Source of the DNA: an uncultured Rickettsiales bacterium
GTDB lineage: Bacteria > Pseudomonadota > Alphaproteobacteria > Rickettsiales > SXRF01
Assembly: GCA_964620765.1 (NCBI GenBank)
Contig: CAZUKF010000002.1
Span: 1-40,774, forward strand
Direction of reading: 5' to 3'
Length of the DNA stretch: 40,774 nt
Below are positions 9,151 through 29,661 of the stretch, piece after piece. Below the pieces are notes generated by a model. That model made no database searches and was not told the DNA's origin. It saw only the letters and a program-made list of their open reading frames with translations. Numbering within the stretch: position 1 is the first letter of the stretch; every line of letters begins with the position of its first letter. Position numbers and translations under genes: made by a program.

Positions 9151-9160
9151 CGGTGAAACC

Positions 9161-9189
9161 GTCATCCTGCGGTCAAGCCGCAGGATGAC
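9161..9189. terminator. 12-bp perfect hairpin between convergent genes (candidate bidirectional terminator; short GTCATCCTG-type element)
   Basis: gtcatcctgcgg (9161-9172), loop tcaag, ccgcaggatgac (9178-9189). It lies 10 nt after the symporter stop and 2 nt before the stop of the leftward gene. Confidence 0.5.
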
Positions 9190-9191
9190 GA

Positions 9192-9824
9192 TTAAATCGC
9201 CAGCGCCGCCTGTCCACTGTGCTGAACATGATGCGGCTGCACGTACTCGCACGGCACGCAAATGCTGTGCCCCGCCAGCTGGTGCAGCGCCTGGAGGGTA
9301 TCGACGCACTGGCAGCTCTGGCCGATGGCCCCGTGCGCGATGGGGTATACCGCCGAGCAATCCATGCCCACGCCTGCAGGCACATAATGCGCACCGCCGA
9401 GCGTGAACGTGTCGGCATAGCCCTGCTTGGGCTCGTAGATTTTCCACTTCATCGATTCGCGGTCGAATACCTGCGCGAACACGTGGCCTTCCGCGCCCGC
9501 ATGCGTCGTGCCCAGCGTATCGGCCTTGAATGTTTCAATGTAAAGCGCGGGAATGCCCGCCGCGCGCGCCAGCGCCAGAAACACGTGCCCGCAATCCGTG
9601 CAGCCGGTTTCAGTGCCGGAGGTGATGATTTCAGAGGCCGTGCGCTTACGGAACACATCCGCCTTATGGGAATCGTCGTGCTTCAGCGTTTTGATGTATT
9701 CGCTGATTTTATGCAGCGTGGTGGTATTGCTGTCGATAGCTTCCTGCTGCAGCTGGTGCGCAAGCGCGGTTACCTTTGCGTCTGCCTGCGTGAACTTGCC
9801 TTGTTGCATCTGGTCGTAGTGCAT
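9192..9824 (-). CDS. Transglutaminase-like cysteine-protease-fold protein with a Cys/His-rich C-terminal tail
   Basis: Strong SD (GGAGGG). GCTDCGHVFLALARAAGIPALYIE...GHVFAQVF...WKIYEP matches the Cys / His / acidic-residue spacing of the transglutaminase-like core. The tail is CSAVYPIAHGAIGQSCQCVDTLQALHQLAGHSICVPCEYVQPHHVQH. Confidence 0.55.
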   Translation of the reverse strand: MHYDQMQQGKFTQADAKVTALAHQLQQEAIDSNTTTLHKISEYIKTLKHDDSHKADVFRKRTASEIITSGTETGCTDCGHVFLALARAAGIPALYIETFKADTLGTTHAGAEGHVFAQVFDRESMKWKIYEPKQGYADTFTLGGAHYVPAGVGMDCSAVYPIAHGAIGQSCQCVDTLQALHQLAGHSICVPCEYVQPHHVQHSGQAALAI

Positions 9825-9844
9825 GCACCCTCCAGTTTAGTTTT

Positions 9845-11719
9845 TTAGATGGTGGTCTTCGGGCCACCCTTCTGCTGGTCGCGCTTGCGCTGTTCGATGA
9901 TGCGTGTTGCAACGTCCACGTCATCCGGCGCAATTTTGTCATTCAGACTCACATCGGTCACCGCCAGGCCCGAAAGCCCGCCGCCACCGTCCGCCTTCTT
10001 CGTTTCACCCTGCTTGGGCGCCTGCTGCTGCCCCGGCGCGCTGCCACGCACCATGGATTTCAGCGCATCGATATCCGCAAGGCCCAGCCCTTTTAAAAGA
10101 TTATCCAGCTTCGCCGGCTGCTGCACCTCGGGGTTCAGCTTGATGGGGTTCTGCGTGCTGGAAATACCCTGGAATTTGTCGGCAATACCGTCGCCGTTCA
10201 CGTCGTTGGCGTTACGGCGCTGGTTGAACGCGTTCACCTGTGCCGATTTCTTCTGCTGCTTCAGCTTGCGCTTCTTGCGCTTGAGCATGTCGGCGGAAAG
10301 CAGCGAATCCTGCGTCTGTTCCACCGCTTCTTCCTGCGCGCGCTCGTGGTCATCCACCTGCTGTTCCATGCTGCCGAACGTGTGTTCCAGCGCACCCTTG
10401 AGCGTCTGCATCAGGCGGTCCACCGTGTGGCCCTTCAGCTCGTTCCACTTGTCCGGCTGGCGCGTTTCATCCACGCTCACGGACATGGTATCGGCAATGC
10501 TTTTCGGTTTTTCCAGCTTGGCCATCAGCTCGATGGAATGCTTCAACACCTTCGCCGCCTCGTTGCCCTGCTGTATCTGCTCGCTGTTCGAAAGCGACGG
10601 GTCACGCGCCATGGCGCGGCTCATGATCTGCTGGTAGAAGCCGACAAACTTGGCCACCACGCCCACCATCTCGCGCTTCTCGTCAGCCGAGCCGTCCTGC
10701 AGGATGCTTTGCGGGCTGCGGTCAGAGAACTTGATGTCCTTGAACCAGCGCAGGATGGTGATGCCGTGTTCCACTGTTTCACGCTTCGTGGCGTTATTGA
10801 GGCTTTCCTCGACCGCCGCTTCTTCCTGCTCCTGCGCCTGCACCTTTTCCAGCGCCAGCTTCTGCGCATAGGCGCGCAATTTTTCGTCGGACATGGTCAG
10901 CGGGTCCAGCGGCGCGCGCGCGTTCAGCCCGTCTTCGGAGAACGGCGTATATTCTACCGGCGGCAGGTCCCACTCGCGCACGGGCATGCCCATCCAGCGG
11001 CGGATGTCGCTCACCACGCTGTTGAAGAGGCCGGTTGTGCGCTCAAGCTTTTTCAGGTGGCGGTAGGCGTAGGCGGCGCCGTCACCTTCCATGTTCAGCA
11101 GTTTCGTATCCAGCGACGGCGCAAACAGCGCGGGCAGCAGGCGCTTCTCATTGCTGATGGCACGGCCCACCTCGGTGGCCATGGAAACCAGCTGTGGGAT
11201 GTAGCGTTCGTCGCCCGGGTCAAAAGACCCGTCGGTCATGTACGTGCCCATCACGTAGTTGCGCAAGGCCGCGAGGTTTTCACGCAGCGGTGCGTATTGC
11301 CCGTAAGTGGCCCTGTTCGGATCAAAAATATCGGGGCGGCCGGCCGTCTCCACGATGACGCGGTCAAAGAAGCGGTAGGCCTGGGTGTCAAAGCCCAGCT
11401 TCGCACCATCGGCGCCTTTCTGCACAAGCTGCTGGTGGGCAGCGAACGTTTCCTCGACGGGGATGATGAACTTGCCCACGTTCGGCCAGAACTGGATACG
11501 GCCGCTGGAGCCTTCTTCGTGCATTTCGCGCAGCATCTCCGCGCGCTCGGCGGCTTCGCGCTCGGCATGCGCCATCTCTAGCTGTATGCGGTTGGAGGGC
11601 AGGTTGGTGTATTCACCTTCGCCCTGCGGGTCATACCGGCGCGCGTATTCCGCGCTGAACCCGCGGCCGCCGGGGCGGCCATCGTAATCGTCATCGTACG
11701 GGTTTTTGTCCCTTGCCAT
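9845..11719 (-). CDS. Hypothetical protein (624 aa), no signal peptide, charged K/Q/E-rich C-terminal third
   Basis: Long ORF with an SD (AAGGA) and 20-bp and 31-bp gaps to its flanking same-strand genes. One DVNGDGIAD calcium-loop-like motif; otherwise no motif I recognise. Confidence 0.7.
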   Translation of the reverse strand: MARDKNPYDDDYDGRPGGRGFSAEYARRYDPQGEGEYTNLPSNRIQLEMAHAEREAAERAEMLREMHEEGSSGRIQFWPNVGKFIIPVEETFAAHQQLVQKGADGAKLGFDTQAYRFFDRVIVETAGRPDIFDPNRATYGQYAPLRENLAALRNYVMGTYMTDGSFDPGDERYIPQLVSMATEVGRAISNEKRLLPALFAPSLDTKLLNMEGDGAAYAYRHLKKLERTTGLFNSVVSDIRRWMGMPVREWDLPPVEYTPFSEDGLNARAPLDPLTMSDEKLRAYAQKLALEKVQAQEQEEAAVEESLNNATKRETVEHGITILRWFKDIKFSDRSPQSILQDGSADEKREMVGVVAKFVGFYQQIMSRAMARDPSLSNSEQIQQGNEAAKVLKHSIELMAKLEKPKSIADTMSVSVDETRQPDKWNELKGHTVDRLMQTLKGALEHTFGSMEQQVDDHERAQEEAVEQTQDSLLSADMLKRKKRKLKQQKKSAQVNAFNQRRNANDVNGDGIADKFQGISSTQNPIKLNPEVQQPAKLDNLLKGLGLADIDALKSMVRGSAPGQQQAPKQGETKKADGGGGLSGLAVTDVSLNDKIAPDDVDVATRIIEQRKRDQQKGGPKTTI

Positions 11720-11750
11720 GCCTTAGTCCTTTGGCTTCAGGGGGCGTGCG

Positions 11751-12032
11751 TTACTGCACGTTTTCCACCGTCAGCTGCTGTCCTTCCTCCGCCGCGGCCG
11801 TGCCCAGCGCGTAGACGCAAAGATCCTCGAACGATACGTTATTCTCTATCGCGATCTTGTGCAGGCGCTCGAAGCTGTCCATCACCTCCTGCGGGATGGT
11901 GCCGCCGCGCACTGTCGAAAGCCACCATGCCTGATGCTGCAACGGGTGCCGCTGCGGGTGCGGCTCTCCCACGTAAACATGGAAGGGATATTTCGTCCCG
12001 TTGAAGTCACACGGTATGGTAAAACGCTTCAT
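11751..12032 (-). CDS. Small conserved hypothetical protein (93 aa)
   Basis: An SD (GGAG) precedes the ATG. MKRFTIPCDFNGTKYPFHVYVGEPHPQRHPLQHQAWWLSTVRGGTIPQEVMDSFERLHKIAIENNVSFEDLCVYALG. From memory this resembles the short alphaproteobacterial DUF2610-type family; unverified. Confidence 0.65.
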   Translation of the reverse strand: MKRFTIPCDFNGTKYPFHVYVGEPHPQRHPLQHQAWWLSTVRGGTIPQEVMDSFERLHKIAIENNVSFEDLCVYALGTAAAEEGQQLTVENVQ

Positions 12033-12234
12033 GCCCCTAAGCTCCGCTAATTGCGTGTAATATCAAAATACTAACATACCAATATTACCGTATGATGACA
12101 ATCGCCCGATTTGGACCCAATTAAGCGATTTTATAACCCCTTATTTTGCACTGTCATAAAACTGCAATGGGATTGATCTATCATTATACACTGGTATGGT
12201 GCGAGGGGTGCCAAGCCAAAGTCGGGATTTCTAA

Positions 12235-15200
12235 GTGCGATCACCACATAAACAGGGGGACTCCGCATATATTAGCCTAAGGACAGCGGCTTACGCTGCC
12301 CTTATCACTACCAGTCTGAGCACCGCTTACAGCGCCCTCGCCGAGGCAACCCAAGCCACACCAAAGACCGCCCCGCCCTGGTGGCAGCAGCCGGATGAAG
12401 GATGGGCGGCATATGCCGCCCGAACTATATTGGAAACGCTGGCCATCCCGGCGGCACACGCGCAGGCAGACGAATATCTTCCCTACCGCGAACTGCCGGA
12501 TTACCTGCCACCAACTTCGCCCAATGCCGTGCCGTCACCGCACCCGGTTTATGCATCGCCGGACCCGTTCATCCCGTATTCTTCGCAGGAATCCCCGTCT
12601 TTTGAACCCGCGCCTTATGGCGTCCCGCCGGTTCTTTCGCCGCACCCCGCGCCACTGCTGCTGAATTCCATCGACCTGAACCCGCTTTCGCTCTTCATCA
12701 AACCGGCCCACGCAATACCGCCAAAACTCCCAACCATCCCGCCAACCTCTCCGCCAACTTTAGCACCCACATTCGCTGCGACCGAGACGCCGACCGAAGG
12801 CATAACCGACGCCCCCACATTCGCTTCTACCGAAACGCCGACCGAAACTGTTACCGCAACTCCTACCTTCCCTCCCGCCCCGTTCGCACCGCCGACCGAA
12901 GAAATAACCAGCGCTCCCACCCTGCCGCCCGATGATTTTTGCATCACGCCATACGGCACATTTGCCGAGGGCTCGTACACTTCCCAGTACAGCACGTGCA
13001 TAGCGCCCGGCGTATGCCACATAGCAATCCTCAACTGCTACGCCGGCGGCAGCTGGGACGGGTTTTACGCCTATGACAGCTGCGCCGAGGCAGAGGCAGC
13101 GGAAGATTGCGGTTTCACCGAGGAAGCCACCGAGATCGCAACTTCTATTGCAACCGAAGAGCCGGCTGGTCCGGGCGTGCCGCCGGATGAAACCGGCGAA
13201 CCAACGGATGAACCCACTGAAACACCAACTCTCATCTCCACTGAAGTCCCGGTCCCGTTCGCACCACCCGGCCCCTTCGCACCACCGGGGCCGTTTGCCA
13301 CGCCCGAACCCACCGTTGTCTCGCCGTTCCTGCCGCCTGGGCCTGGCGTAGTCCCTGAACCCATTACCCGTTTTCCGGGGCCTTCACCGTTACAGCCCAC
13401 ACCCGAACCCATCGTCGTACCGGAACCTGTGCCCGAACGTGTCGTCGCACCGATGCCCACACCCGAACCCATCGTCGCACCAGCACCCACGCCCGCGCCT
13501 GTTGTACCGCAACCTGTTCCGCAAGCTGCGCCCGGCCCCCAACCTGTGCCGCAAGCAGCACCCGCACCCGAACCTGTGCCGCAAGCTGCGCCTGCACCTG
13601 CAGCCGTACCGGGCCCCGGGCCAGAACCCGTACCCCAACCTTCGCCTGCAGGCCCTGCACCCGCGCCTTCACCTGCTGCTCCGGCACCCGCACCTTCGCC
13701 GGCCGGTCCGGCGCCCGCACCAAGCCCAGCACCCGGTCCCTCACCTGGCCCCGGTCCCGGCCCGGCACCCGCGCCCGGCCCCGAGGGCAATTGCCCGAAC
13801 CCCAACCCTGCCGAAGCACCGGCACCGGCTGAAATGCCGGCCCCGGCACCTGCGCCCGCACCAGGACCACAGGCTGAACCGGAGCCCGGACCCGGCCCGG
13901 CACCGCGCCCGAACCGCGAATATCCGCCTAACGGCCCGACGCGTAAAACAGAGTACCAGGACAACACCTACCGTGACCTGTGCAAGAGCAGCCGCATCCT
14001 GAAACCGGGTGAGTTCTTCGATGACATAACGGGTGAACTTGTACTCGCCGGTGATGGCCCGAACCCGGCGCCTGATCCCACGCTGGAAGAAAATTTCTTC
14101 GCCGCGCAGCATGTGGCGGGCGCAAAGCCGGGTGAAAACTGCATGCCGGCCAAGAACACGCCGGTGGTGGACCTGAAGAACACGCCATTCATGTGGGTGA
14201 ACCTGAAAGACGCCTCCACCGGCAAGGAACTCAATGATCTCGCACGCATCTACCGCTGGACCGGCAAGGATGACACGCTGAAAGCCTACATGCAGGTGGT
14301 CGGCGGCATTGATTTCTGCCCGCAGCTGCTCGTGCCGGATAAGAATTTCTGCCTCGAAGGCATGACCACCAATCCGCAGATGCTGTGCGGCGGGGTAGCC
14401 AGGCCGCCGGATGCGCCGTCTTCGAAGTGCGCCAATATGAAGGTGCGCGATTGCGATACCAAGAGGCTGATGGAGTTCCGCATGGCCGTCGTGCGCAAAT
14501 GCGCCGAAACCTACATCGCCATGCGCAGCATGCGGCCTTGGTGGCTCTACGAAAAATACGGCTCTACCTGGGAAGAGTTCCTCGCGCCGACGGGAGCCCC
14601 CTGGTACGGCTACGGCGGCCACGAAGCCGAACCGCCGGTACGCATGCTGCAACCGCTGATGCGCGGCTCCGACGCGCGCAAAGTTTACAAGGGTGAGATG
14701 AAGCAGCGCTATGCGCGCAAGGTCGACACGATCCGCGATGGCAAGCACCCGTGGCGGAACGAATGGGAGCTTGACCTGGGAGTAGAGCTTGAAAGGTATT
14801 TCAAGGACACGCTGATTTATGGTACGGCACTCGACCAGGCGGCAAGCGCAAGAATCCCCAAGAGCCTCGCAATGAAGGTGCCCAAGCCCTTCCCCGACGT
14901 CAACATGCCCTGCATCAAGGACAAGGGAGGGTTGACGGTTGCGCCGGGCGTGGAGCCGCCGAGAGACAGCCCTGCCCCGGCACCAGCGCCAGCGCCTGAA
15001 CCGGTTCCGGAGGATAACAATCCGAACCCGGTACCCCAGGCCGCTCCCGAGCCGCCCGTGCCGGGTGATCCCTGCAAACCCAAAAAGCCGCCGCAGACCT
15101 GCGGCTCCGGCTCCATAACGCATGGCGGCTTCTGCGACCCCGGCGACGATGAGGAAACGAAGCCCCCCATACCGCCGGCCGTGCCGGATCCAATCGAGCA

Positions 15201-17763
15201 GACCGAAGAAGCGTGCGGCACGCCGATCTACGCAATACCCGGCTACGAATACAAACCGCCGAAAGTGCACGAGAAGCAGCCGGACTGGTGCACGCCGGTA
15301 GAACAGTTCCTCATGGTTGATGCATGGGCTCCGCGCAGCTGGGTGGCGCGCGGCGGCAATCCCCATGACCGCTACCTGCCGCCTTCAAGCATTGACTACG
15401 ACATCGCGGATACGGATCGCCACTTCTCCAACAAGACGTCGCGGTACGTAAACCTGCAGGTTCCCGGCACAAAAATTTGCCAGAGAGTGCTTGGCTACAC
15501 CACCTACCAGGAATGGCAGAACCCCGAGCATAAGGCGCTCGACGCGATCGCCATGTGCGCCATCACGCCAGTCGACCTCATGACCTTCCGCTTCGACGTA
15601 TTCAACGGCTGCATGGGCCAGCGCATCAACTTCAACTACAACACGTGGGTGAAGTGGATGAAAGTCCCGGCCAACTTCAATGCCTACACAAACTGGGTTG
15701 AAGACTACGACATGAGCAGGCCGCCCCACGAAAACGATGCCTGCCCCTTCATCCCGCCCTGCGCCACGCGCTACTACCAGACCGACGATGCCAATGTCTG
15801 CAAGGCCGCGGCCTGGAGTGTCAAGCAGTGCTGCGGCTTCGCCGCCATGCCGGTGACGCTGGTCAACCAGACCAAGACACGCATGCAGTATGGCCCACGC
15901 AAGGCATTTGAAAACGTCGCGGACCCGGATTCACCCGGTTACGATTCCACCAAGAAATACCCGCTGATCGCACAGAATTACATGGAGACATATGTCGCTA
16001 CGCCGTTCTCATGGGGTACGCAATGGTCTGGCCCCGGCAGCAATGCCAATGAAGAGGACCTGAAGGCCGTCGAGAAAATGCACGACATCGGCTGGCCGGC
16101 AGCAAGTTATGACATCCCGCGAACACCCCGTGACGCTACTTTCTTCTACACATTCCGCATCCTGAGTGGCCGCTCCGACCCTTCTAACACCAGCCCCAAC
16201 AAGATCATCGGCGCCTACTTCCCGGGCACCAAGTACTATGATACGGGCGGCGTGGCCGGCACATCGAAAGACTACGTGGATATGGGCATCATCACACCGG
16301 ACCAGGCGCGCGGCGGCGTGGATTACTTCAACAACGCCTTCACGTATGACGTCACCGGCATCATCGGCAATGAAGGCCGCACCAAGTCAGAAGCAGAAGA
16401 AGCGATCAAGCTCGCCCAAGGCATCACCAACCCGCGCTATACCAGGCCGCAGTTCGAACTCGACTGGCTGGAGCAACCGCAAAATTCGCGCATGGGCGGT
16501 TACGGCACCATCGTCAACCGCGTGTGGGATACGATCATGAACGGCCGCTATAACCGCATGCCCGCCGGCGGCCTGCCGCGTTATGAAGTCACCTTCAAGG
16601 ACTTCGACATGGACGATTTCCCCCTTGGCCTCGCCGGCGGCCAGTTCAACGCGCCCAACGGCGCCGTCTACCAGTGGCCCAAGGGCTGGCGCGGCTACGG
16701 CTCCGAAAGTTTCGTGAATGTCACCAACGGCTTCCCTTATGTCAATAATCCCGGCATGGCAGGGGTTGTACCGCCTCTTATCGTGGGCGGAAAGGTTTCC
16801 CTATCTCAGGCGCAGGCCGACGATATCATCGTGGTTGATATCGATGGCATCCCGCGCACGTATTTCGTGGTGATGAAAGGCAACAAGCCGCACCCTGAAA
16901 GCATCCAGGGCTGCATCGCCAATCCCACGCTCTGCTACGATATGGCCTACATCCAATCCACCAGCACGGACTTCCTGATCGTGAAGTCCATGGGCATCAA
17001 CAAGGTGCCCTCCTCCACCGGCATCGGCTCCAGCTGGGGCAGGGACAGCACGCAGATGCTGTTCTCAGGCCCTGTAACGCTGCTCAATGACAAGGTCCAC
17101 AAGAACCCCGGGCTGGCGGAAGAAGGCTGGTACCGCTGGGTAACCAATAACAGAATTATTGGCGCGTTCGACAAAGTGGGCGATTACGTGCCTACGCATC
17201 CGAACCCGCACTTCCTCACACCCTCCTGCCGCGACCCGGATTTCCTGGCCTGCACCGTGCCGAAAAGCGCGTGGAACAACGCCATAATCTTCCGCCCCCA
17301 CAGCAGCGTTAATGACTGCGCGCGCTCCGGTGTCTGCATGGACCCGTTTGGCAATCCACAAATCGTCGCCATGAGAGATGTTCCGCCGGGCAACACACGC
17401 TGCGGCGCCAGCCTGGTCATGAGCTGCTACAACGACGGTAAAGACCCCCTGCCCGGCAAGCCATGGACACTGATGGGCTCGTGGGTGCAACAGCGGTCCG
17501 GCGGCTACAAGGGCGTCGGCGCGGGCGACTACACGCTCGCCGGCTTCTGCCCCGCGGTGTTCAACAGGCTTATCCCGGACATGACCAACCCGAACTGCGT
17601 CAGGTTCGGCCCCAACAGCCCGGATTGCCCGAAGAAGATGGAAGTGCTGAACAAGGGTGATCCGGAAGGCGCCTGGGGAAGCTGCCCGTCCGCGCGCCTG
17701 GGCCCTAACAAGAAAAATACGCCGCTGCCGTCAGGGCCGATGAACGGCGGGGCAGCCCGGTAA
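12235..17763 (+). CDS. Giant exported protein (1842 aa): signal peptide, long Pro/Ala/Thr-rich spacer, two Cys/Trp/Tyr-rich regions of unknown fold
   Basis: An in-frame TAA immediately precedes the GTG at 12235. The N-terminus, SLRTAAYAALITTSLSTAYSALA-EA, looks like a signal peptide. Codons ~80-560 are almost pure P/A/T/E/G/V low complexity with tandem repeats. A second PAPAPAPEP linker lies at ~14950-15200. I count more than 30 Cys downstream of the first spacer. Confidence 0.8.
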   Translation: MRSPHKQGDSAYISLRTAAYAALITTSLSTAYSALAEATQATPKTAPPWWQQPDEGWAAYAARTILETLAIPAAHAQADEYLPYRELPDYLPPTSPNAVPSPHPVYASPDPFIPYSSQESPSFEPAPYGVPPVLSPHPAPLLLNSIDLNPLSLFIKPAHAIPPKLPTIPPTSPPTLAPTFAATETPTEGITDAPTFASTETPTETVTATPTFPPAPFAPPTEEITSAPTLPPDDFCITPYGTFAEGSYTSQYSTCIAPGVCHIAILNCYAGGSWDGFYAYDSCAEAEAAEDCGFTEEATEIATSIATEEPAGPGVPPDETGEPTDEPTETPTLISTEVPVPFAPPGPFAPPGPFATPEPTVVSPFLPPGPGVVPEPITRFPGPSPLQPTPEPIVVPEPVPERVVAPMPTPEPIVAPAPTPAPVVPQPVPQAAPGPQPVPQAAPAPEPVPQAAPAPAAVPGPGPEPVPQPSPAGPAPAPSPAAPAPAPSPAGPAPAPSPAPGPSPGPGPGPAPAPGPEGNCPNPNPAEAPAPAEMPAPAPAPAPGPQAEPEPGPGPAPRPNREYPPNGPTRKTEYQDNTYRDLCKSSRILKPGEFFDDITGELVLAGDGPNPAPDPTLEENFFAAQHVAGAKPGENCMPAKNTPVVDLKNTPFMWVNLKDASTGKELNDLARIYRWTGKDDTLKAYMQVVGGIDFCPQLLVPDKNFCLEGMTTNPQMLCGGVARPPDAPSSKCANMKVRDCDTKRLMEFRMAVVRKCAETYIAMRSMRPWWLYEKYGSTWEEFLAPTGAPWYGYGGHEAEPPVRMLQPLMRGSDARKVYKGEMKQRYARKVDTIRDGKHPWRNEWELDLGVELERYFKDTLIYGTALDQAASARIPKSLAMKVPKPFPDVNMPCIKDKGGLTVAPGVEPPRDSPAPAPAPAPEPVPEDNNPNPVPQAAPEPPVPGDPCKPKKPPQTCGSGSITHGGFCDPGDDEETKPPIPPAVPDPIEQTEEACGTPIYAIPGYEYKPPKVHEKQPDWCTPVEQFLMVDAWAPRSWVARGGNPHDRYLPPSSIDYDIADTDRHFSNKTSRYVNLQVPGTKICQRVLGYTTYQEWQNPEHKALDAIAMCAITPVDLMTFRFDVFNGCMGQRINFNYNTWVKWMKVPANFNAYTNWVEDYDMSRPPHENDACPFIPPCATRYYQTDDANVCKAAAWSVKQCCGFAAMPVTLVNQTKTRMQYGPRKAFENVADPDSPGYDSTKKYPLIAQNYMETYVATPFSWGTQWSGPGSNANEEDLKAVEKMHDIGWPAASYDIPRTPRDATFFYTFRILSGRSDPSNTSPNKIIGAYFPGTKYYDTGGVAGTSKDYVDMGIITPDQARGGVDYFNNAFTYDVTGIIGNEGRTKSEAEEAIKLAQGITNPRYTRPQFELDWLEQPQNSRMGGYGTIVNRVWDTIMNGRYNRMPAGGLPRYEVTFKDFDMDDFPLGLAGGQFNAPNGAVYQWPKGWRGYGSESFVNVTNGFPYVNNPGMAGVVPPLIVGGKVSLSQAQADDIIVVDIDGIPRTYFVVMKGNKPHPESIQGCIANPTLCYDMAYIQSTSTDFLIVKSMGINKVPSSTGIGSSWGRDSTQMLFSGPVTLLNDKVHKNPGLAEEGWYRWVTNNRIIGAFDKVGDYVPTHPNPHFLTPSCRDPDFLACTVPKSAWNNAIIFRPHSSVNDCARSGVCMDPFGNPQIVAMRDVPPGNTRCGASLVMSCYNDGKDPLPGKPWTLMGSWVQQRSGGYKGVGAGDYTLAGFCPAVFNRLIPDMTNPNCVRFGPNSPDCPKKMEVLNKGDPEGAWGSCPSARLGPNKKNTPLPSGPMNGGAAR
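12763..12858 (+). repeat. 2 x 48-bp in-frame tandem repeat (APTFA[A/S]TETPTE...)
   Basis: 12763-12810 and 12811-12858 align directly: gcacccacattcgctgcgaccgagacgccgaccgaa... versus gcccccacattcgcttctaccgaaacgccgaccgaa... Confidence 0.7.
13507..13596 (+). repeat. 3 x 30-bp in-frame tandem repeat (P[Q/E]PVPQAAP[G/A])
   Basis: The units 13507-13536, 13537-13566 and 13567-13596 differ at only a few positions. Confidence 0.8.
13639..13719 (+). repeat. 3 x 27-bp in-frame tandem repeat (PSPA[G/A]PAPA)
   Basis: The units 13639-13665, 13666-13692 and 13693-13719 were read directly from the sequence. Confidence 0.75.
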
Positions 17764-20356: not shown

Positions 20357-20746
20357 ATGACCATGATCGACAAAACCCTGCCCATCCTCATCGTTGACGA
20401 TTACAACATGATGCGCAACATCGTGCGCGGGCTGCTGAAACAGCTGGGCTTTGAAAACGCCGACGAGGCGGCCGACGGCACCGAGGCGCTGGCCCGCCTG
20501 AAAGAGAAAAAATACGGCCTCATCATATCGGACTGGAACATGCAGCCCATGACGGGGTTGGACCTGCTGAAGAACGTGCGCGGCGATTCCGAGCTCCGGC
20601 ACACCCCCTTCATCATGGCCACCTCCGAGAACAAACCCGAGCACTTGCTCACCGCCAAGCAGGCCGGTGTCAGCAACTACCTCGTCAAACCCTTCAACGC
20701 GGACATGCTGAAAGCCAAGATGGTCAGCGTATTGGGGGCTTTCTGA
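20357..20746 (+). CDS. Single-domain CheY-like response regulator
   Basis: ILIVDDYNMMRNIVRGLLKQLGF...ISDWNMQPMTGLDLLKNVR...PFIMATSE...GVSNYLVKPF contains the acidic pocket DD, the phospho-acceptor D in SDWNM, and the conserved T and K. Confidence 0.9.
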   Translation: MTMIDKTLPILIVDDYNMMRNIVRGLLKQLGFENADEAADGTEALARLKEKKYGLIISDWNMQPMTGLDLLKNVRGDSELRHTPFIMATSENKPEHLLTAKQAGVSNYLVKPFNADMLKAKMVSVLGAF

Positions 20747-23700
20747 TGAAGCGCCACCTGCTTGCCCTTGCGGTTACCGCCTCGCTCCTGCCCGCGCTCG
20801 CGCTGTCGGCATCCGGCAGCACGCCGGTGGTGCGCGGCGAGGTGATCCGCGATTTCGCCCGCGTAACGTTTGAATGGCCGCGCACGGTGTATCTCACCAC
20901 GAAAACAGAGGGCAACACCGTTACCCTCAATTTTGACCGCCGCGCCAACCCGGATTTCGGGGCGCTGCTGGGCGGACTCTCGCCTTACGTGGTCAATGCT
21001 TCGCTCTCCGCCGACGGCAAATCCGTGCAGCTGACGCTGGACAAGGCCTACCGCATCCGTAGCTTTGTCAGCGGTAATCTGAACGGCGTCGATATCGTGG
21101 GCGTGGATGCCAGCCTGCACCGCAAGCCGGAAAAGCAGCTGGCTGCGCTGGCCCCCGCTGCCGGTGAAGAGAAACCGTCATCCCCGCCGGAGCAAAGCGC
21201 AGAGCGGGGATCTGGGAAAACCCCGGATGTCGTGCGCACACCCGAGATCCCCGCTTCCGCGGGGATGACACAAAACAAGAAACCCGAGCCGAAACCGGCT
21301 CCTGTGGCAGAAAAAAAGCCAGAAGAAAAACCGGTGCAAATGACGGAAGCGAAGCCGGAAGCACCGCCTGAGCCGCCGCCCTCGCCTGTTGCCGCCACGC
21401 CGCCGGAGCCGCCGCCTGCCCCGGTTGCCGCCGCCGCACCTGAAGCGCCCGTAGCCCTGGCCACACCCGTGCCCGCCGCCGACGTGCCTGCGCTTTCCGC
21501 CGAGCCTGCCCCCGCCTTCGCCCCACCCAAGGAAACCGGGGAACCGGGCAAGGACGAAGACCGCGTGCAGGTCTTTGCCAGCACCAGCGGCGAGCGCACC
21601 ATCCTGCGTTTTGCCTGGCCGACGCGCGTGGCTGCCGCCACCTTCAAGCGCGGGCCTTACGTGTGGGTGGTCTTCAACAAAACCTCGAAGCTTGATCTCG
21701 ATGCTGTAAAGCAGACCGCCGATACGCTTTACCCGGATATTGAACAGTTGCCCACGCCCGGCGCCACGGTGCTGCGCATCGCGCGGCCTTCCAGCGGCGG
21801 CGTGATGGCCACCAAGGCCGGCGATTCGTTTGAATGGAACATCGTGCTGATCAGCTCGCCGCAGCTGCCGCAAGACAAGATCCGCGTGGACGTGAACACC
21901 GAGCCACCGCTACCACCGCACGTTTTCCTCGCCATGCCGGAAGTGGTGAACCCGGTGACGATCGAAGACCCCGATTTGGGTGACACGCTGCTTGTCGTGC
22001 CGCTCTACCAGCCCGGCCAGGGCCTGGCACCCACGCGCCGCTTCATTGAATTTGCGCTGTTGGAAAGCGCACAGGGCGTGGTCATCCAGAAAATCGCTGA
22101 CTGGATGAACATCACGCCCGTGCGCAACGGTATGCGCGTCGGCGCCGAGGGCGGCGCGCTGGTCAGCCCCGCCCTTGCCTCTTCGCGTAAAGTTCCGGAA
22201 ATCTCGCTGCCCTCCACGCCCACCAACACGCCGCAAGGCCAGAGCACTACGCTTTTCCCGTATGAGCTCTGGCGGGCAGACCCCGCGGTGCCTTTCGTCG
22301 ACCAGGTGAACGAGCTGGAGATCGCCATCGCCGCATCCGGCATCCCCGATGAAGGGATGAAATTGCGCCTGAAGCTGGCCCAGCTTTACCTTGCCGAGGG
22401 CTTTACCACCGAGGCGCTGGGCATGGTGCAGGAAATCCGCCGGATTGACTCGCAGTCCTACGTAGGCCTGCGCGCGGCGGCCATCGCCGGCGGCGCAAAT
22501 TTCCTCATGCACCGCTTCTCCGAAGCCGCCGATGATTTCGCCGCCGCCGAACTGCAGGGCAGCCCCGAGGTGGAATTCTGGAAAAACGTGCTGGCGGAGC
22601 TCTTAGGCAAGCCGGAGCAGAATTACCGCTACCTGGAGAATAACGACGCCTATATCAGCAAATACCCGCCGCGCATGCGCCAGCGCCTGTCCATCGCGGC
22701 GGCAGACCGCGCCGTCGCACAGGCCGATTACGCAAGCGCGCTGGAGATCATGGAGCTGATGAAATCGGAAGACCTGGTAGAAGGGCTGGACTCCTATCTC
22801 AGCTATCTCGCCGCCAAGATCGCGCTGGAGACGGGCAAGGAAAAAGAAGGGCTGGAAGCACTGGTCACGCTGGCACAGGACTACAAACACCTCTCGGTGC
22901 GCGCGCGCGCCGAGTTCACCCTCATCAATTACGAGCTGAAGAAAGACCCGGAAAGCATCAAGGTGCTGCAGCCCCGGCTTGAGCGGCTTTACACCTCGTG
23001 GCGCGGCGACAGCCTAGAGATGGAAACGCTGAAAATCCTCGGCGAGCTTTATGCCCAGCAGGAAGAATACGTGCGCGCCATGCAGGCGTGGCGCGACCTG
23101 ATCACCGCTTTCCCCAGCACGGTCTCCGCCGCGGTGGCGCTCAACAAGATGCAGGCCACTTTCGTGCAGCTGTTTGACGGCGGTGCCGCGGGAGCCCTGC
23201 CGCCGCTGGACCAGCTTTCGCTGTATTATGAATTCCGCACCCTCACCCCAGCGGACGCGGCGGGTGACCGCATCATCAACGGCATCGCCGACCGGCTGGT
23301 CTCTATTGACCTGCTGGAGCAGGCCATCACGCTGATCGATTACCGCATGCGCTACCTGTATGAGAAAGAGGCGCGTTCCCGCGCCGGCGCCAAGCTCGCC
23401 CGTATCTTTCTGATAAACCGCCAGCCCAAGAAGGCGCTGGAAGCGCTGCAGAAGTCGCTTTACGGTGAAAACCCGGAAGATTTGAAGGTGGAGCGAGACC
23501 GGCTGGCGGCGCAGGCCATGGTAGAAATGGAACGCTACGGCGAAGCAGCGGCCCTGCTGGCGGAAGACAAATCCACCGAGGCGGAAGCCATCCGCCAGCG
23601 TTCATGGTGGAAGCAGAAGGACTGGCCGAAGCTGATCGCTTCCGTGGAAGGAGACCTCAAGAACCGCGCCACGCTGACGGCTGCCATTACCGAGCCGGAG

Positions 23701-24078
23701 GGCGAGAAGCTCACCCAGCTGGCGTTGGCCTACGTGGCCGAGAACGACACCGCCCAGCTACAATATTTGCGTGATTACTTCACCCCGCTGATGCAGGACA
23801 ATTCTCGCCTGAAGCTGTTTCACTTCATCACCGAACCGCAGTTGCTGGTCACCCCCGAGATGTTCGATGCCATGCTGCAGCAGGTGGAGGATACCCGCCA
23901 ATTCATCAAGGAGTTTGATATCCATCCCAAGCTGGCGCAGATGAGCGACGGCGCGCCGCACGCGGCCGAGACACCCATCGTGGCACCGGTAGACCTTTCC
24001 CCAGACGCCGCCAAGAAGCTGGAGGAAGAGGCAAAGGAGAAGGACCCGGCGAAAGAGAAAGAAAAGCCCACCCCCTAA
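20746..24078 (+). CDS. Exported 1110-aa protein: signal peptide, two beta-rich N-terminal modules split by a Pro-rich spacer, long C-terminal TPR-like helical repeat region
   Basis: Signal peptide MKRHLLALAVTASLLPALALSASG. Pro/Ala spacer PEAPPEPPPSPVAATPPEPPPAPVAAAAPEAP. Helical repeats, for example LRLKLAQLYLAEGFTTEALGMVQEI and LKILGELYAQQEEYVRAMQAWRDLI. The start ATG overlaps the cheY-like stop (TGATG). Confidence 0.8.
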   Translation: MKRHLLALAVTASLLPALALSASGSTPVVRGEVIRDFARVTFEWPRTVYLTTKTEGNTVTLNFDRRANPDFGALLGGLSPYVVNASLSADGKSVQLTLDKAYRIRSFVSGNLNGVDIVGVDASLHRKPEKQLAALAPAAGEEKPSSPPEQSAERGSGKTPDVVRTPEIPASAGMTQNKKPEPKPAPVAEKKPEEKPVQMTEAKPEAPPEPPPSPVAATPPEPPPAPVAAAAPEAPVALATPVPAADVPALSAEPAPAFAPPKETGEPGKDEDRVQVFASTSGERTILRFAWPTRVAAATFKRGPYVWVVFNKTSKLDLDAVKQTADTLYPDIEQLPTPGATVLRIARPSSGGVMATKAGDSFEWNIVLISSPQLPQDKIRVDVNTEPPLPPHVFLAMPEVVNPVTIEDPDLGDTLLVVPLYQPGQGLAPTRRFIEFALLESAQGVVIQKIADWMNITPVRNGMRVGAEGGALVSPALASSRKVPEISLPSTPTNTPQGQSTTLFPYELWRADPAVPFVDQVNELEIAIAASGIPDEGMKLRLKLAQLYLAEGFTTEALGMVQEIRRIDSQSYVGLRAAAIAGGANFLMHRFSEAADDFAAAELQGSPEVEFWKNVLAELLGKPEQNYRYLENNDAYISKYPPRMRQRLSIAAADRAVAQADYASALEIMELMKSEDLVEGLDSYLSYLAAKIALETGKEKEGLEALVTLAQDYKHLSVRARAEFTLINYELKKDPESIKVLQPRLERLYTSWRGDSLEMETLKILGELYAQQEEYVRAMQAWRDLITAFPSTVSAAVALNKMQATFVQLFDGGAAGALPPLDQLSLYYEFRTLTPADAAGDRIINGIADRLVSIDLLEQAITLIDYRMRYLYEKEARSRAGAKLARIFLINRQPKKALEALQKSLYGENPEDLKVERDRLAAQAMVEMERYGEAAALLAEDKSTEAEAIRQRSWWKQKDWPKLIASVEGDLKNRATLTAAITEPEGEKLTQLALAYVAENDTAQLQYLRDYFTPLMQDNSRLKLFHFITEPQLLVTPEMFDAMLQQVEDTRQFIKEFDIHPKLAQMSDGAPHAAETPIVAPVDLSPDAAKKLEEEAKEKDPAKEKEKPTP

Positions 24079-25267: not shown

Positions 25268-25759
25268 TTATCTTTTCTCAAAGCGGATCCGCACCGCCAC
25301 CGCCGTATCGTTCAGCCGGTCCGCATCAAACTGCACCACGCGGATGCGGTAGCGCCCCTCTAGCGCATAAATCCACTCCACCAGCTTCTCGAACGCCGCC
25401 CCGTCCACCGCGGCAAACACCGAACCGTCATCCGCCGCCTCCACCCGGTTCAGCGGGATGGCGCGGGTGCGCGCTGTTTCACTGACAATCGTCGCAAGCG
25501 GGCTGTCCTCCGTCACGGTATCCTTCGCCTGCGTGCCCCATGTCTGGGCGTACTGGTCCAGCCGCGCCAGCTGCGCCTGCGTGCGGTAATACTCACGCAC
25601 GGCTTCTCGCGCGTAGCGGCTGGCCGGCTGCCATACCAGCCAGTACAGCAGGCCGATTCCCCATGCCACCACGCAGACGTACACTAACACCCGCTCACGC
25701 GGGCTGCGCCCCTGCAGCAGTGCGTTGCCTTGCGAAACCGCCTGGGTCAATGCTTTCAC
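25268..25759 (-). CDS. gspM: Type II secretion system protein M
   Basis: Small bitopic protein (TM segment RVLVYVCVVAWGIGLLYWLVW) with a C-terminal ferredoxin-like part. It is the last gene of the gsp operon and overlaps gspL by 4 nt. Confidence 0.8.
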   Translation of the reverse strand: MKALTQAVSQGNALLQGRSPRERVLVYVCVVAWGIGLLYWLVWQPASRYAREAVREYYRTQAQLARLDQYAQTWGTQAKDTVTEDSPLATIVSETARTRAIPLNRVEAADDGSVFAAVDGAAFEKLVEWIYALEGRYRIRVVQFDADRLNDTAVAVRIRFEKR

Positions 25760-27015
25760 CGCCCGGCCCTCCCGAACAGCAGCGTCACGTTCACCGACTT
25801 GTCATTCTGCACGATGGAATCCACCTGCGCCGACCACGCGGTGGGCAGCTGCACATGGTTGATCTGCTCCAGCGTATCCATGCCCGCAAGCTTGAGGCGC
25901 ACTTTCATCTGCTGCGTCTCCTCCAGGTAGGAAAGCTGCTCCACCTGCGTCTGCTGCAGCAGGCCCTGGTCGGCATAGAGGCGGACAAAAGCGTTGAGCA
26001 TACCGACAAAGCCGGGCTGCCCGCCTGCACCTGCGGCCTGCACGCGCTGCAGCATGCTGTCGGCCGCGGCCTGCGCCCCGGGATCATTCGGGAACATGGC
26101 CCGCCAGCGCGTCACCGCATCTTCACGGTCATTGGCCGTGCGCGTGTTGAGCATCACGCCCACCCCGATGTTAAACAGCACGCCGATGGCAAAAGCCGCC
26201 GCCGCCACCTTGGCCACCGCGCGCGGGTGCTGCACGGTAAAGCTGCTGCCCTCGCGCGGCAGGCCCTGCCGGGAAAGCAGGTTGATCAGCGGCACCTCTT
26301 CCTTCTGCTCGACATAAGCCTGCGCCAGCGTGGCCAGCACGGAGTTTCCCTTGCGCGCGCGCAGTTCCACCTGCCCTGCATGTGCTGCCAGCGCCTCTGA
26401 GAGCGTGGCGGAAACATTGCCTTCCGTCCACATCCTGGCCTGCAGGAAGCTCTGCGAAAGGCCCTGCAGGTACATTATCAGCGTATCTTCTTCCAGCGCC
26501 TGTGCCTTGTCGGCCCCGGCACGGAAAATCACCCGCGCGCCATCCTGCAGCAGCCAGATTTCCTCCTCGAGCGCGGGCAGCAGCAGCGCCTCGGACGTTA
26601 TCACCGCGGGCGTAATGCCCGCCTGTTTCAGCGCCTGCGCCGCCGCGTCCACCACCGCGCGGTCTGCCACCGCCACCACGTGCCCACCGCCCGCTTTGGG
26701 CAGGGCCGCGGCATATACCTGCTCGGCCGGCACGGCCAACGCACCTTCCACCGCGTAGGCCAACGCTTCCGACGAGCGGGCGAGCTTTCCCTTGGGCAAA
26801 TTCACAGAAGTCAGCAGTACATCCTCGGCGGGCAGCAGCACTATCACGCTCGCCCGGCCCAGCCTACTCCACGGGATCTGCGCTTTCGCTTCCGCGGGCG
26901 AAACCGGCGCGGCGGACGCACCGATGCGCTCCGCTTCGCTGAACGCGGCCCACTCCACGCCCATCGCCTCCACCGGCGAGGTGAACCGTATGAAGCATAA
27001 GCTCTTACTAGCCAT
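25756..27015 (-). CDS. gspL: Type II secretion system protein L
   Basis: 419 aa with a cytoplasmic actin-like N-domain, a single TM segment (VAAAAFAIGVLFNIGVGVML) and a periplasmic domain. Positioned between gspK and gspM. Confidence 0.8.
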   Translation of the reverse strand: MASKSLCFIRFTSPVEAMGVEWAAFSEAERIGASAAPVSPAEAKAQIPWSRLGRASVIVLLPAEDVLLTSVNLPKGKLARSSEALAYAVEGALAVPAEQVYAAALPKAGGGHVVAVADRAVVDAAAQALKQAGITPAVITSEALLLPALEEEIWLLQDGARVIFRAGADKAQALEEDTLIMYLQGLSQSFLQARMWTEGNVSATLSEALAAHAGQVELRARKGNSVLATLAQAYVEQKEEVPLINLLSRQGLPREGSSFTVQHPRAVAKVAAAAFAIGVLFNIGVGVMLNTRTANDREDAVTRWRAMFPNDPGAQAAADSMLQRVQAAGAGGQPGFVGMLNAFVRLYADQGLLQQTQVEQLSYLEETQQMKVRLKLAGMDTLEQINHVQLPTAWSAQVDSIVQNDKSVNVTLLFGRAGR

Positions 27016-27033
27016 GGAAAAGCAGTATCCGGA

Positions 27034-27870
27034 TTACCAATCCCTGTAAAGGGTGCGGAAGCTTGCACCCCCCTGCTTGTCCTTCAGGCGCTCAATACCG
27101 GCACGCAGGCGATACGGTTCCCCGTCTATCACCACCTCCGCCGAAACGGTAAAATGCGAAGACCAGGCCCGTAAACCAGGGCTGCTTTCCAGGTCCGTCT
27201 TGAGCAGCGGCCCGGCTTCGCGCTTGTCCAGCAGGGCCTGCGCCTTCGCCTCGCTGCCAAGCACGGCTGCCAGCACGCGGGCAGATGCGGTGTTTGCATT
27301 CACCGGCGCCTCGGCGGTGGGCAGCGCGGCAACCGCATCCTGCACCTGCCGGTATTGCGTGCGGGTGAGGCCGTAATCCATCAGCTGGCTGGCATCCTGC
27401 ATGTAAACGTCTTCTTCCGTGAAGGCGGCAACCAGCGCCTTTTCCACGCCCGTGGCCGTCTCCGGCGAAATGCCGCTCAACTCGCAGAGCTTCTCCCACG
27501 GCCCGGCCGCGCCGCCTTCCCCAGTCAGCAACGCATTCAGGTTCAGCCGGGTTTCTGCATCTTCAATACGCAGGCGTACCTCCCCGCCCGGCACGCTGAA
27601 AACCGCGGACTGCGCCCATGCTTCCTTCGGGTGATCCAGCTCCGCATCCTCCTTCAAATCCCGTGCCAGCACCTGCCTTGCACGTATTTCCGCGCCCAGC
27701 GCGTACTGCCACGCCTGCATGTAGGAAACAAAGCGCCCGGTGGAAGTCACCTCGGTGTATTGCCGCGCGAGCAACGTGGCAGCGATCACGCTCACCGCCA
27801 TCACCACCAAGAGCACGGTGATGATGGCGAAACCCTGCTCGCCTCTGCCTATCTTGCCAGCGCGATCCAC
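27034..27870 (-). CDS. gspK: Type II secretion minor pseudopilin K
   Basis: GFAIITVLLVVMAVSVIAATLL N-terminal helix, plus ...RLNLNAL... and VNANTASARVLAAV motifs typical of GspK. Confidence 0.85.
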   Translation of the reverse strand: MDRAGKIGRGEQGFAIITVLLVVMAVSVIAATLLARQYTEVTSTGRFVSYMQAWQYALGAEIRARQVLARDLKEDAELDHPKEAWAQSAVFSVPGGEVRLRIEDAETRLNLNALLTGEGGAAGPWEKLCELSGISPETATGVEKALVAAFTEEDVYMQDASQLMDYGLTRTQYRQVQDAVAALPTAEAPVNANTASARVLAAVLGSEAKAQALLDKREAGPLLKTDLESSPGLRAWSSHFTVSAEVVIDGEPYRLRAGIERLKDKQGGASFRTLYRDW

Positions 27871-28430
27871 TGCTCCACCTTTCCAATCCCCGTGATCTCC
27901 AGCTTCACCGCCACCGCGCGCGGCAGCGCGGCATTTTGCGCCGGCATGTCATCCCAGCTTTTCTGCCATGCGCCTGCCGGATCCATGAAAGCGATGCTCA
28001 CTGCCTCCACGCCGGAAGCCACGCGCAGCACATCTTCTCCCCCCACCGCCGGGTAGTGCTGGCGCAGTAGCGCGCCGCCGCGCCGCGCATAGCGGATATA
28101 TTCAATGCGCCCGCGCGCAGCTTCAGCCGCACCGTCCCAACCGCGGCGGCAGAAGGCATAAAGGGGTTCGCCCATGCCCTCCTCTGACTGCGGTGGTTGC
28201 GGTTCCTTCAGATCCGGCGGGCAGGGCGCAGCCTGTGCAAAATCCTGGTGCAGCAACACCAGCAGCGACTGCAGCTCCGCCAGCTGCACGCTTTTGCGGC
28301 TCGCCTTGTCGCGCATCAGAGTCATGGCGGAAAGCAGCTGGTACGAGGCGAGGCTTACCAGCGCGAAAATCGCCATGGCGATGACAATCTCCATCAGCGT
28401 GAACCCCTGCTCTTTTGCGTGCGCGCTCAT
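27849..28430 (-). CDS. gspJ: Type II secretion minor pseudopilin J
   Basis: Prepilin-type N-terminus KEQGFTLMEIVIAMAIFALVSLASYQLL, in the expected operon position. Confidence 0.85.
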   Translation of the reverse strand: MSAHAKEQGFTLMEIVIAMAIFALVSLASYQLLSAMTLMRDKASRKSVQLAELQSLLVLLHQDFAQAAPCPPDLKEPQPPQSEEGMGEPLYAFCRRGWDGAAEAARGRIEYIRYARRGGALLRQHYPAVGGEDVLRVASGVEAVSIAFMDPAGAWQKSWDDMPAQNAALPRAVAVKLEITGIGKVEQWIALAR

Positions 28431-28813
28431 GGCTTCTCCAGGAAACCGGTGAGCGTGGCGGCGCGCTCAGGACCGTCAAAAACCTCCACCTCCACGCGGC
28501 GCATGCCTGCGTCCTCCGTCTCCAGCACTTGATAACGCAACTGCCATGTGCGCCCCGCCATCTCCGCCGTGCTTTCGCCCGCCGCTTCCGCAGGCAGGCC
28601 GCTTTTCAGTTGCATCTCGGTGAGTAAATTCGAGGCAGCCAGCGTACCGAAAGTGCGCCGCTCCAGCACCTGCATCTGCGCCACCGTGGAGTTCAGCGCC
28701 CGCAAGATGCCGCCCGCCGCCACGCTGAGCACCAGCAGCGCCACCAGCACTTCAATTAATGTGAATCCCTTATTTCTCGGCGGTGTTTTCAAGAACAATC
28801 GTCCCCTCGGCAC
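28427..28813 (-). CDS. gspI: Type II secretion minor pseudopilin I
   Basis: NKGFTLIEVLVALLVLSVAAGGILRAL prepilin motif. The GTG at 28813 is the longest start; the TTG at 28792 (MKTPPRNKGFTLIEV) is more typical of a short prepilin leader. Confidence 0.85.
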   Translation of the reverse strand: MPRGRLFLKTPPRNKGFTLIEVLVALLVLSVAAGGILRALNSTVAQMQVLERRTFGTLAASNLLTEMQLKSGLPAEAAGESTAEMAGRTWQLRYQVLETEDAGMRRVEVEVFDGPERAATLTGFLEKP

Positions 28814-29660: not shown

Positions 29661-29661
29661 A

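Follow-up and report, generated by a model that had tools for sequence, protein, structure and literature searches.

The Pfam domain DUF2610 (PF11020) has been reported as fused to two cyanobacterial orthocaspases (PMC8283722), and in the library searched it receives only passing mention, in the orthocaspase domain tables of two papers. It also occurs in nSTAND and kinase proteins with tetratricopeptide repeats (TPR), architectures that are those described for bacterial conflict and signalling systems, including the STAND-NTPase conflict systems of multicellular bacteria (Kaur et al. 2020, PMC7159879; Kaur et al. 2021, PMC8195603). For the promoters considered here, the described counterpart is the Pho regulon of the Proteobacteria, including Sinorhizobium, in which the Pho box is made up of 11-nt units of CTGTCAT (review PMC4415409). 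This work concerns a solo DUF2610 gene, its neighbours and its promoter in a 40,774-nt stretch of DNA (the window) from an uncultured Rickettsiales bacterium (GenBank assembly GCA_964620765.1, contig CAZUKF010000002.1, positions 1 to 40,774 of the forward strand). DUF2610 and the gene that follows it, named BIG here, form a conserved gene pair, a conclusion that leaves hardly any room for doubt, and the pair is preceded by a Pho-box-like promoter. The pair is not described in the literature searched, and both BIG and DUF2610 are without characterised relatives. No relationship of the pair to any characterised system could be detected; its novelty lies in this absence of similarity and not in a demonstrated mechanism.

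The locus consists of three open reading frames (ORFs) on the minus strand. The first, at 11751-12032, encodes the 93-amino-acid (aa) DUF2610 protein, the second, at 9845-11719, encodes the 624-aa BIG, and the third, at 9192-9824, encodes a 210-aa transglutaminase-like/papain-like protein. They are separated by gaps of 31 nt and 20 nt, and each is preceded by a Shine-Dalgarno-like site (GGAG for the 93-aa gene, AAGGA/TAAGG for the 624-aa gene and GGAGG for the 210-aa gene). A preliminary description of this DNA, made from its letters, had presented the locus as a tight three-gene leftward run, and the ORFs, the spacing, the Shine-Dalgarno sites and the quoted motifs are all as stated there. 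A hairpin scan found no terminator-like hairpin in either gap; a strong hairpin with a 13-bp stem (CGTCATCCTGCGG-cttga-CCGCAGGATGACG, an inverted repeat at 9160-9190) stands after the last leftward gene, facing the convergent SDF symporter gene, and is a probable bidirectional terminator. Hairpin matches inside coding sequences numbered 6, against 4.0 in shuffles, which is the chance level. Given the short gaps, a Shine-Dalgarno site for each gene, the lack of a hairpin in the gaps and the hairpin after the last gene, the three genes are probably carried on one transcript. The 93-aa and 624-aa ORFs have many homologues each, and the 210-aa ORF is supported as a real gene by one homologue (50% identity) and a Pfam match. 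On the other side of DUF2610, a divergent region of 202 bp (12033-12234; 41% GC vs 61% for the whole window) leads to a giant, Pro/Cys-rich ORF of 1842 aa on the plus strand (12235-17763). Rfam gave no match anywhere in the window.

Species-representative genomes were searched with the DUF2610 alignment and 204 were positive; the counts that follow refer to the best 80 of these 204, all of them metagenome-derived (79 metagenome-assembled genomes, MAGs, and one metagenome chromosome). A search with the BIG profile placed the start of a BIG homologue about 10-35 nt after DUF2610 in 76 of the 80, and in the long contigs with BIG homologues DUF2610 lies directly upstream in every case (5/5). The usual gene order is NDUFS4, DUF2610, BIG, SDF(-), NMT1(-), GGDEF(-), purE and purK, and the window retains the SDF, NMT1 and GGDEF genes on the side of the pair where they are usually found. 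The two members of the pair differ in their rates of change: measured against the copy in the window, DUF2610 has a median identity of 86% (81 loci) and BIG one of 27% at the same loci. The pair is vertically inherited in a large clade of uncultured Alphaproteobacteria. Its carriers, many of them labelled Rickettsiales, are common inhabitants of lakes, streams, sludge and sea water and are not represented in culture; several of the MAGs come from time series of Lake Mendota.

The conserved functional core consists of two genes, not three, and the third gene very probably lies outside the unit. No homologue of the transglutaminase-like gene was found at any of the approximately 80 related loci, and its sole homologue lies in another context. 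Conservation of the neighbourhood across genomes, which the preliminary description had named as a check, is therefore borne out for the 93-aa and 624-aa pair and fails for the 210-aa and giant genes; a functional unit of three genes is not supported, because the third does not co-occur with the other two.

Alignment of the regions upstream of DUF2610 brings out a conserved block, which over 78 non-redundant loci takes the form of the direct repeat yTGTCAT-AATn-CTGT(A/C)A(T/C). Half-site scores of at least 10/12 are reached in 42 of the 78 promoters, compared with 0.9% of shuffled or random genomic 150-mers, and 18 of the 32 sites that score at least 11/12 in about 0.97 Mb of loci are placed just upstream of DUF2610. 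In 41 of 59 orthologous sites the distance from the second half-site to a TANNNT sequence is exactly 10 nt, and no -35 element at 17-nt spacing is found in the orthologous DUF2610 promoters. This 10-nt distance from box to -10 is that of the E. coli pstS and phoA promoters. As in those PhoB-activated promoters, two 7-nt direct repeats of CTGTCAT type are set apart by a 4-nt A/T-rich spacer to give an 11-nt period, and the repeat replaces the -35 element and ends 10 nt before the -10; several of the orthologous promoters are perfect, for example CTGTCATAAAACTGTCAT. They differ from the E. coli examples in that the genes driven here are not known Pho-regulon functions, and in the second half-site, which is CGGTAAY in the sub-clade of the window.

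The window contains only two sites of at least 9/12 with the 10-nt geometry in its 40.8 kb, and they stand back-to-back at 12068-12184, one on each strand. Upstream of DUF2610, on the minus strand, the repeat TTGTCAT-CATA-CGGTAAT (12084-12101, 10/12 half-site matches) is followed after 10 nt by the -10 sequence TAGTAT (12068-12073), the whole element (TTGTCATCATACGGTAAT, 10 nt, TAGTAT) covering 12068-12101. Facing the giant gene on the plus strand, the repeat CTGTCAT-AAAA-CTGCAAT, 10 nt and the -10 sequence TATCAT make up a second element at 12151-12184 (CTGTCATAAAACTGCAAT, 10 nt, TATCAT). Both elements are kept almost base for base in locus L091, where the spacer between them has diverged, and locus L013 keeps only the element on the DUF2610 side. 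A divergent control region shared with the giant gene had been proposed; the region does hold two Pho-box-type promoters, the giant-facing one being retained in L091, and shared control itself is plausible, with the DUF2610 side and the giant-gene side probably co-induced. From the sequence and geometry of a PhoB-activated promoter, the operon is most likely induced by phosphate limitation, and Pho-type regulation of the DUF2610 operon is rated as rather likely. Apart from the boxes, the segment GATTGATCTATCATTATACACTGGTATGGTG is almost identical between 12169-12215 of the window and L091:562-650, though the BIG proteins are 50% identical; the conserved block past the giant-facing Pho box reaches beyond the -10 into the likely 5' leader.

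The preliminary description had guessed that the 93-aa protein is a conserved small domain of unknown function, and this was right, because residues 1-80 match positions 1-80 of the 81 in PF11020 (E=4e-37, 126.3 bits against a cutoff of 21). The window protein is a full-length, high-scoring member of the Pfam family and differs from members elsewhere in being a solo protein tied to one partner gene, where the others are embedded in larger proteins. A homologue search gave 347 clusters, with identities to the window copy of 68-96% among the 120 listed. In the AlphaFold2 (AF2) model (predicted local distance difference test, pLDDT, 81.5) the protein folds as a beta-hairpin (strands 2-10 and 13-21) and then three helices (32-42, 48-64 and 68-83). 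Conservation was computed over 147 representatives, 34 of them fusion proteins; the residues conserved throughout the superfamily are F10, Y20, P30, Q34, W37, G43, G44, P47 and L71, all present in the window protein and mostly structural. C8 and C72 are about 87% conserved. A metal site formed by C8, H29 and C72 was considered and is unsupported, H29 being only 26% conserved in the fusion proteins.

Searches of the PDB with the DUF2610 sequence and profile returned only low-complexity, leucine-rich-repeat (LRR) or other chance matches, and Foldseek with the model found no significant structural neighbour in the PDB and nothing below E=0.6 in BFVD. The nearest likeness is to the ribbon-helix-helix (RHH) regulators Arc, CopG and pRN1 ORF56: the C-terminal half of DUF2610 (GG-T-I-P-QEVMDSFERLHKIAIENNVSFEDLCVYAL) is laid out as a short strand, a helix, an N-x-S turn and a helix. 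The best PDB matches are weak, with ORF56 by profile search at E=0.1 and 0.24 and Arc by Foldseek at E=3-5.6 (template modelling score 0.42-0.46), all below significance, and none of 66 DUF2610 members matches an RHH Pfam family. DUF2610 differs from the RHH regulators in an extra N-terminal beta-hairpin and helix, and in the invariant Gly-Gly held within its putative ribbon strand.

A search of 5.8 billion proteins detected 39 homologues of BIG; every one comes from a metagenome or MAG, and the few that are named belong to uncultured Alphaproteobacteria. BIG has no hydrophobic segment (maximum KD19 0.84) and matches no Pfam or NCBIfam family, no PADLOC model and, whether searched as a single protein or as a profile, no PDB sequence beyond low-complexity, LRR and chance matches; Foldseek of its AF2 model against the PDB gave nothing below E=1. 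The absence of a transmembrane segment and of a recognisable enzyme motif in the 624-aa protein, noted in the preliminary description, is thereby borne out, and none of these databases offers a known family that would account for the protein independently. Weak secondary Pfam matches, to CPSase_L_D3 in 7 of 38 BIG homologues (E=3e-5 at best) and to NNH1 in a single one, were not used, and a Pfam scan of every member of the DUF2610 and BIG alignments showed no consistent secondary family.

With 38 homologues as input, AF2 models BIG as an all-helical protein that has a confident N-domain, a helical middle of moderate confidence and a tail without order. The N-domain (residues 3-291; 10847-11713, minus strand) is helical with one beta-hairpin, and its pLDDT is mostly 85-97 over residues 40-290. 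It is a separate ORF in three loci, where BIG is split into two adjacent ORFs carrying the N-domain and the C-module (L019:6443-8568, L020:6284-8671 and L029:6284-8778), by either gene fission or assembly frameshifts, and it is missing from versions of about 490-530 aa (for example L032-L048), which carry two copies of the helical repeat. The region at about residues 300-460 (10340-10822, minus strand; the ILRW.. module and H..I.LMA..E.P), duplicated in longer homologues, is the only one that all 76 family members possess in conserved form. Conservation within it is highest at hydrophobic residues (I322, L323, Y362, A388, A400 and L436), and no invariant polar residue was found in this core across the 76 members. 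The disordered charged tail begins with the polybasic RKKRKLKQQKK (residues 481-491) and the DVNGDGIAD loop (506-514), together at 10178-10279 on the minus strand; the loop is the calcium-loop-like motif pointed out earlier, and it is present as described. In the family consensus RKRRRRR is followed by D.NGDG..D or by ADD.A.GQG, with D510 alone invariant. Residues 493-601 of the tail have pLDDT below 50, and the protein as a whole contains 42 Gln and 86 Lys+Arg. BIG is predicted to be cytoplasmic. Its modular build, with only residues ~300-460 universal and the conserved positions there hydrophobic, speaks for a role in scaffolding or binding and against an enzymatic one.

The best explanation overall, whose chances stand at about even, is that a single Pho-box-driven transcript carries the conserved DUF2610-BIG pair as its payload, the other two genes being accessory. 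The transcription unit would start at a promoter close to 12068-12101 and end with the hairpin at 9160-9190, with PhoB-type activation, most likely under phosphate limitation. Both products of the pair would act together in the cytoplasm; a physical complex between them has an even chance of existing. BIG would be the non-enzymatic scaffold or binding protein with a long disordered Q/E/K/R-rich tail, and DUF2610 its strongly constrained partner, either an adaptor or possibly an RHH-like nucleic-acid-binding dimer. The transglutaminase-like gene would be a lineage-specific passenger on the same transcript, and the giant gene, with its own Pho-box promoter, would probably be co-induced with the pair. 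On this explanation an anonymous three-gene locus becomes a clade-wide gene pair with a specific regulatory input, the Pho-box promoter, which offers a first handle on the function of DUF2610. A solo DUF2610 with housekeeping-like synteny is also linked to the DUF2610 found inside STAND-NTPase and kinase proteins of conflict type. If Pho control is true, the pair constitutes a major uncharacterised part of the phosphate-limitation response.

Several observations weigh against this explanation. PhoB is inferred as the regulator from the motif only. The same motif stands before Peptidase_C26/GATase genes at three loci, a few kb upstream of the pair, and another regulator of the OmpR family is possible because these genes are not classical members of the Pho regulon. 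Seventeen of the 78 orthologous promoters score 8/12 or less and lack a good repeat, and an extended -10 (TGn) is partly conserved, which may allow a degree of constitutive expression. The likeness of DUF2610 to RHH proteins is built on non-significant matches, and hhalign detects no relationship between DUF2610 and BIG. The Peptidase_C26/GATase sites themselves are perfect or near-perfect, for example CTGTCATAAAACTGTCAT (L012:2322, L015:1314 and L038:809), and suggest either that the regulator has a second target or that it may not be PhoB.

If the regulator were not PhoB, the repeats might serve as operator for DUF2610, which would then be a transcription factor, an RHH-like autoregulator with a small regulon made up of its own operon, the Peptidase_C26 genes and, in the lineage of the window, the giant gene. 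The weak RHH-like signals in the C-terminal half of DUF2610 point in this direction, as do the occurrence of the motif at a gene of non-Pho type and the extreme conservation of DUF2610, which parallels that of the repeat. DUF2610 is also found at the C-terminus of STAND/TPR and kinase/TPR proteins or between their TPR arrays, and in MalT/AfsR-like regulators such positions are occupied by DNA-binding output domains. Against it, canonical Pho promoters have this motif at this 10-nt distance from the -10, DUF2610 genes outside the alphaproteobacterial module lack the repeat in their upstream regions, and every RHH similarity is below significance, with no RHH Pfam match in the members scanned. 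Autoregulation of this kind is considered unlikely.

The third gene raises the question of an enzymatic partner. Residues 30-131 of the 210-aa protein match positions 11-107 of the 108 in PF01841 Transglut_core (E=1.8e-8, 35.1 bits against a cutoff of 23). The motifs GCTDCGHVF, GHVFAQVF and WKIYEP lie at residues 74, 113 and 127, and the putative triad, placed by inspection, consists of Cys75 (9600-9602), His114 (9483-9485) and Glu131 (9432-9434), all on the minus strand. Cys75 lies within GCTD..FLALARAAGIP and His114 within EGHVFAQV, at the canonical positions of the G-x-C and H-[AV]-[WF] motifs of the superfamily. The transglutaminase-like/papain-like core that had been claimed is accordingly supported by the Pfam match and by Cys and His at the expected motif positions, and the acidic residue is Glu131 in W-K-I-Y-E-P (YEP) instead of the Asp of the usual DP. 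Glu is found at this position also in the homologue P0161, and it may plausibly be a functional, non-canonical substitute. The protein further departs from the superfamily in being a short single domain, nearly an orphan, with a Cys/His-rich tail that is not conserved. The tail (residues 156-202; 9219-9359, minus strand) contains 5 Cys, as counted earlier, and 6 His, one fewer than was stated. The suggestion that it binds metal is not supported, neither the tail nor Cys78 being kept in the sole homologue.

That homologue, P0161, shares 50% identity with the window protein and keeps C75, H114 and E131. It is encoded on a 2.4-kb contig (L010), adjoining an M24 peptidase, and its gene is bracketed by direct repeats of about 220 nt that are 83-97% identical (L010:36-256 and 1071-1268), an arrangement that suggests a mobile cassette. 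The repeats contain a tRNA-T-arm-like string, GGTTCGAATCC, and ARAGORN calls no tRNA there; the repeat element was not found in the window. Elsewhere the slot after BIG is mostly taken by the convergent SDF symporter gene and otherwise by genes for TPR, DsbD, YkuD, EI24, NAD synthase, ferredoxin-like or Gln_deamidase_2 proteins. A ~210-aa "conserved third gene" in 13 distant loci was rejected: it is the convergent symporter gene read in a shadow frame, and its C/P/S-rich translation is junk. A third gene of about 100 aa in L001, L006 and L025 looks, by inspection, like an ordinary 2Fe-2S ferredoxin-like neighbour. The transglutaminase-like gene of the window is best regarded as a recent lineage-specific insertion that probably shares the transcript of the pair.

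The enzyme might nevertheless act upon BIG. Papain-fold Gln-directed enzymes would then have been recruited repeatedly to deamidate, cleave or cross-link the Gln/Lys/Glu-rich disordered tail of BIG. The slot after BIG does hold a second, unrelated Gln-directed match, a 333-aa PF18626 Gln_deamidase_2 protein whose start lies 2 nt after the BIG stop codon (L004:12435-13436; the same in L027). BIG offers abundant Gln, Lys and Arg, and both proteins are predicted to be cytoplasmic and co-transcribed. The idea nevertheless draws on only two genomes among about 80, the slot at most loci holds an unrelated neighbour or no third gene at all, and chance adjacency is possible, which leaves BIG as a substrate with a low probability. 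In a wider form of this idea, to which a similarly small probability is attached, the pair would be an undescribed two-protein system for phosphate starvation, universal to the clade, in which DUF2610 is the adaptor or nucleic-acid module and BIG a diversifying scaffold that in some lineages is modified by Gln-directed enzymes. These would have been recruited independently, the transglutaminase-like protein in the window and Gln_deamidase_2 in L004, and DUF2610 would bring to the pair a domain which in other bacteria forms part of the sensor/TPR arms of STAND NTPases and Ser/Thr kinases.

Such fusions are frequent. A HMMER scan of 1.84 billion representative proteins identified 848 with DUF2610, many of them large proteins with the architectures nSTAND1-TPR-DUF2610-TPR, Ser/Thr kinase-TPR-DUF2610 or TPR-DUF2610. 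At L092:417-7139 a SIR2_2-TIR_2 gene lies directly upstream of the gene for a 1773-aa nSTAND1-TPR-DUF2610-TPR protein; this looks like an antiviral-STAND system with DUF2610 within the repeat arm. Outside the alphaproteobacterial clade, solo DUF2610 genes occur as two to three tandem copies or directly after a gene for a 1993-aa NACHT protein (L024:5244-6291, L049/L007:5671-6279 and L060:10-6279). The neighbours of these copies include NACHT/nSTAND giants, VirD4/TraG-like ATPases, an FGE-sulfatase-HEAT protein, integrases and a PIN gene.

These contexts would fit a pair that is itself a module of conflict or toxin-antitoxin type, with the small protein as antitoxin or adaptor and the large one as effector, related to the STAND-NTPase systems that contain DUF2610 and with which it has this domain in common. 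One DUF2610-bearing STAND-type protein adjoins a SIR2-TIR gene, solo tandem copies stand beside NACHT/nSTAND and VirD4-like ATPases in neighbourhoods that also hold integrases and a PIN gene, orthocaspase fusions are on record, and the pair has the small gene first and a fast-evolving large partner. The module of the window differs from the STAND-NTPase systems in having no NTPase, TPR, caspase or TIR component and in being chromosomal and syntenic, not patchily distributed. The alphaproteobacterial pair is single-copy, clade-wide and vertically inherited in a stable housekeeping synteny, PADLOC gave no match, and BIG carries no NTPase, nuclease, toxin or other effector signature and no conserved catalytic residues. 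The small gene is moreover the more conserved partner, which would be unexpected for an antitoxin. A conflict module is considered very unlikely.

The polybasic RKKRKLKQQKK, which resembles a nuclear localisation signal, and the basic C-terminus recall type IV substrates, and BIG could on that ground be a secreted effector with DUF2610 as its chaperone. BIG evolves fast, paralogous DUF2610 copies stand beside VirD4-like coupling ATPases, and the Rickettsiales label of many pair-bearing genomes is in line with such a role. Type IV secretion genes are absent from the window and from the inspected flanks of the pair, the window having a type II system instead, a chaperone far more conserved than its cargo would be unusual, and the genomes are environmental, with flagellar and biosynthetic genes nearby; there is very little likelihood that BIG is an effector.

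The giant protein contains 283 Pro and 41 Cys and an N-terminal signal-like segment, and has no Pfam, NCBIfam, PADLOC or PDB sequence match. Among 92 loci its only homologues are in L013 (28% identity) and L091 (50% in the N-terminus). It stands beside the pair in three genomes only, the window, L013 and L091, and is divergent from DUF2610 in all three. As a neighbour specific to the sub-clade, the giant gene falls outside the conserved module. The proposal that the transglutaminase-like enzyme processes or cross-links the giant Pro-rich exoprotein, all four genes forming one system, can draw on their adjacency, the Pho-box-type promoters on both sides that make co-expression plausible, the intact Cys/His core of the enzyme and a type II secretion cluster in the window that could export the giant protein, and it is nonetheless the least probable of the explanations, for the enzyme has no signal peptide or transmembrane segment where the giant protein has a signal-like N-terminus, a mismatch of compartments, both L013 and L091 keep the giant gene beside the pair without the enzyme, the sole homologue of the enzyme lies in an unrelated, repeat-flanked context, and the giant gene is absent from about 77 of the 80 related loci.

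With the DUF2610-BIG pair retained as the conserved element of the locus, a few further features of the window may be recorded. Imperfect tandem DNA repeats with periods of 12-30 nt, at 13248-13781, encode the Pro/Ala-rich region of the giant protein. Beyond the giant gene, a 1110-aa ORF at 20746-24078 on the plus strand has no Pfam match and represents another large uncharacterised protein. The type II secretion cluster comprises the genes for GspL, GspK, GspJ, GspF and GspE at 25756-32333 on the minus strand and for the GspD secretin at 37445-39469 on the plus strand. Between them, at 32948-37340 on the plus strand, lie the genes for two large, probably secreted proteins, one of 648 aa with a PKD domain and one of 812 aa with beta-helix/NosD, LamG and PKD domains. 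The secretion cluster could export the giant protein and these neighbouring PKD proteins. Just before the PKD protein genes, the segment 32001-33000 has a GC content of 45%, compared with about 61% elsewhere.

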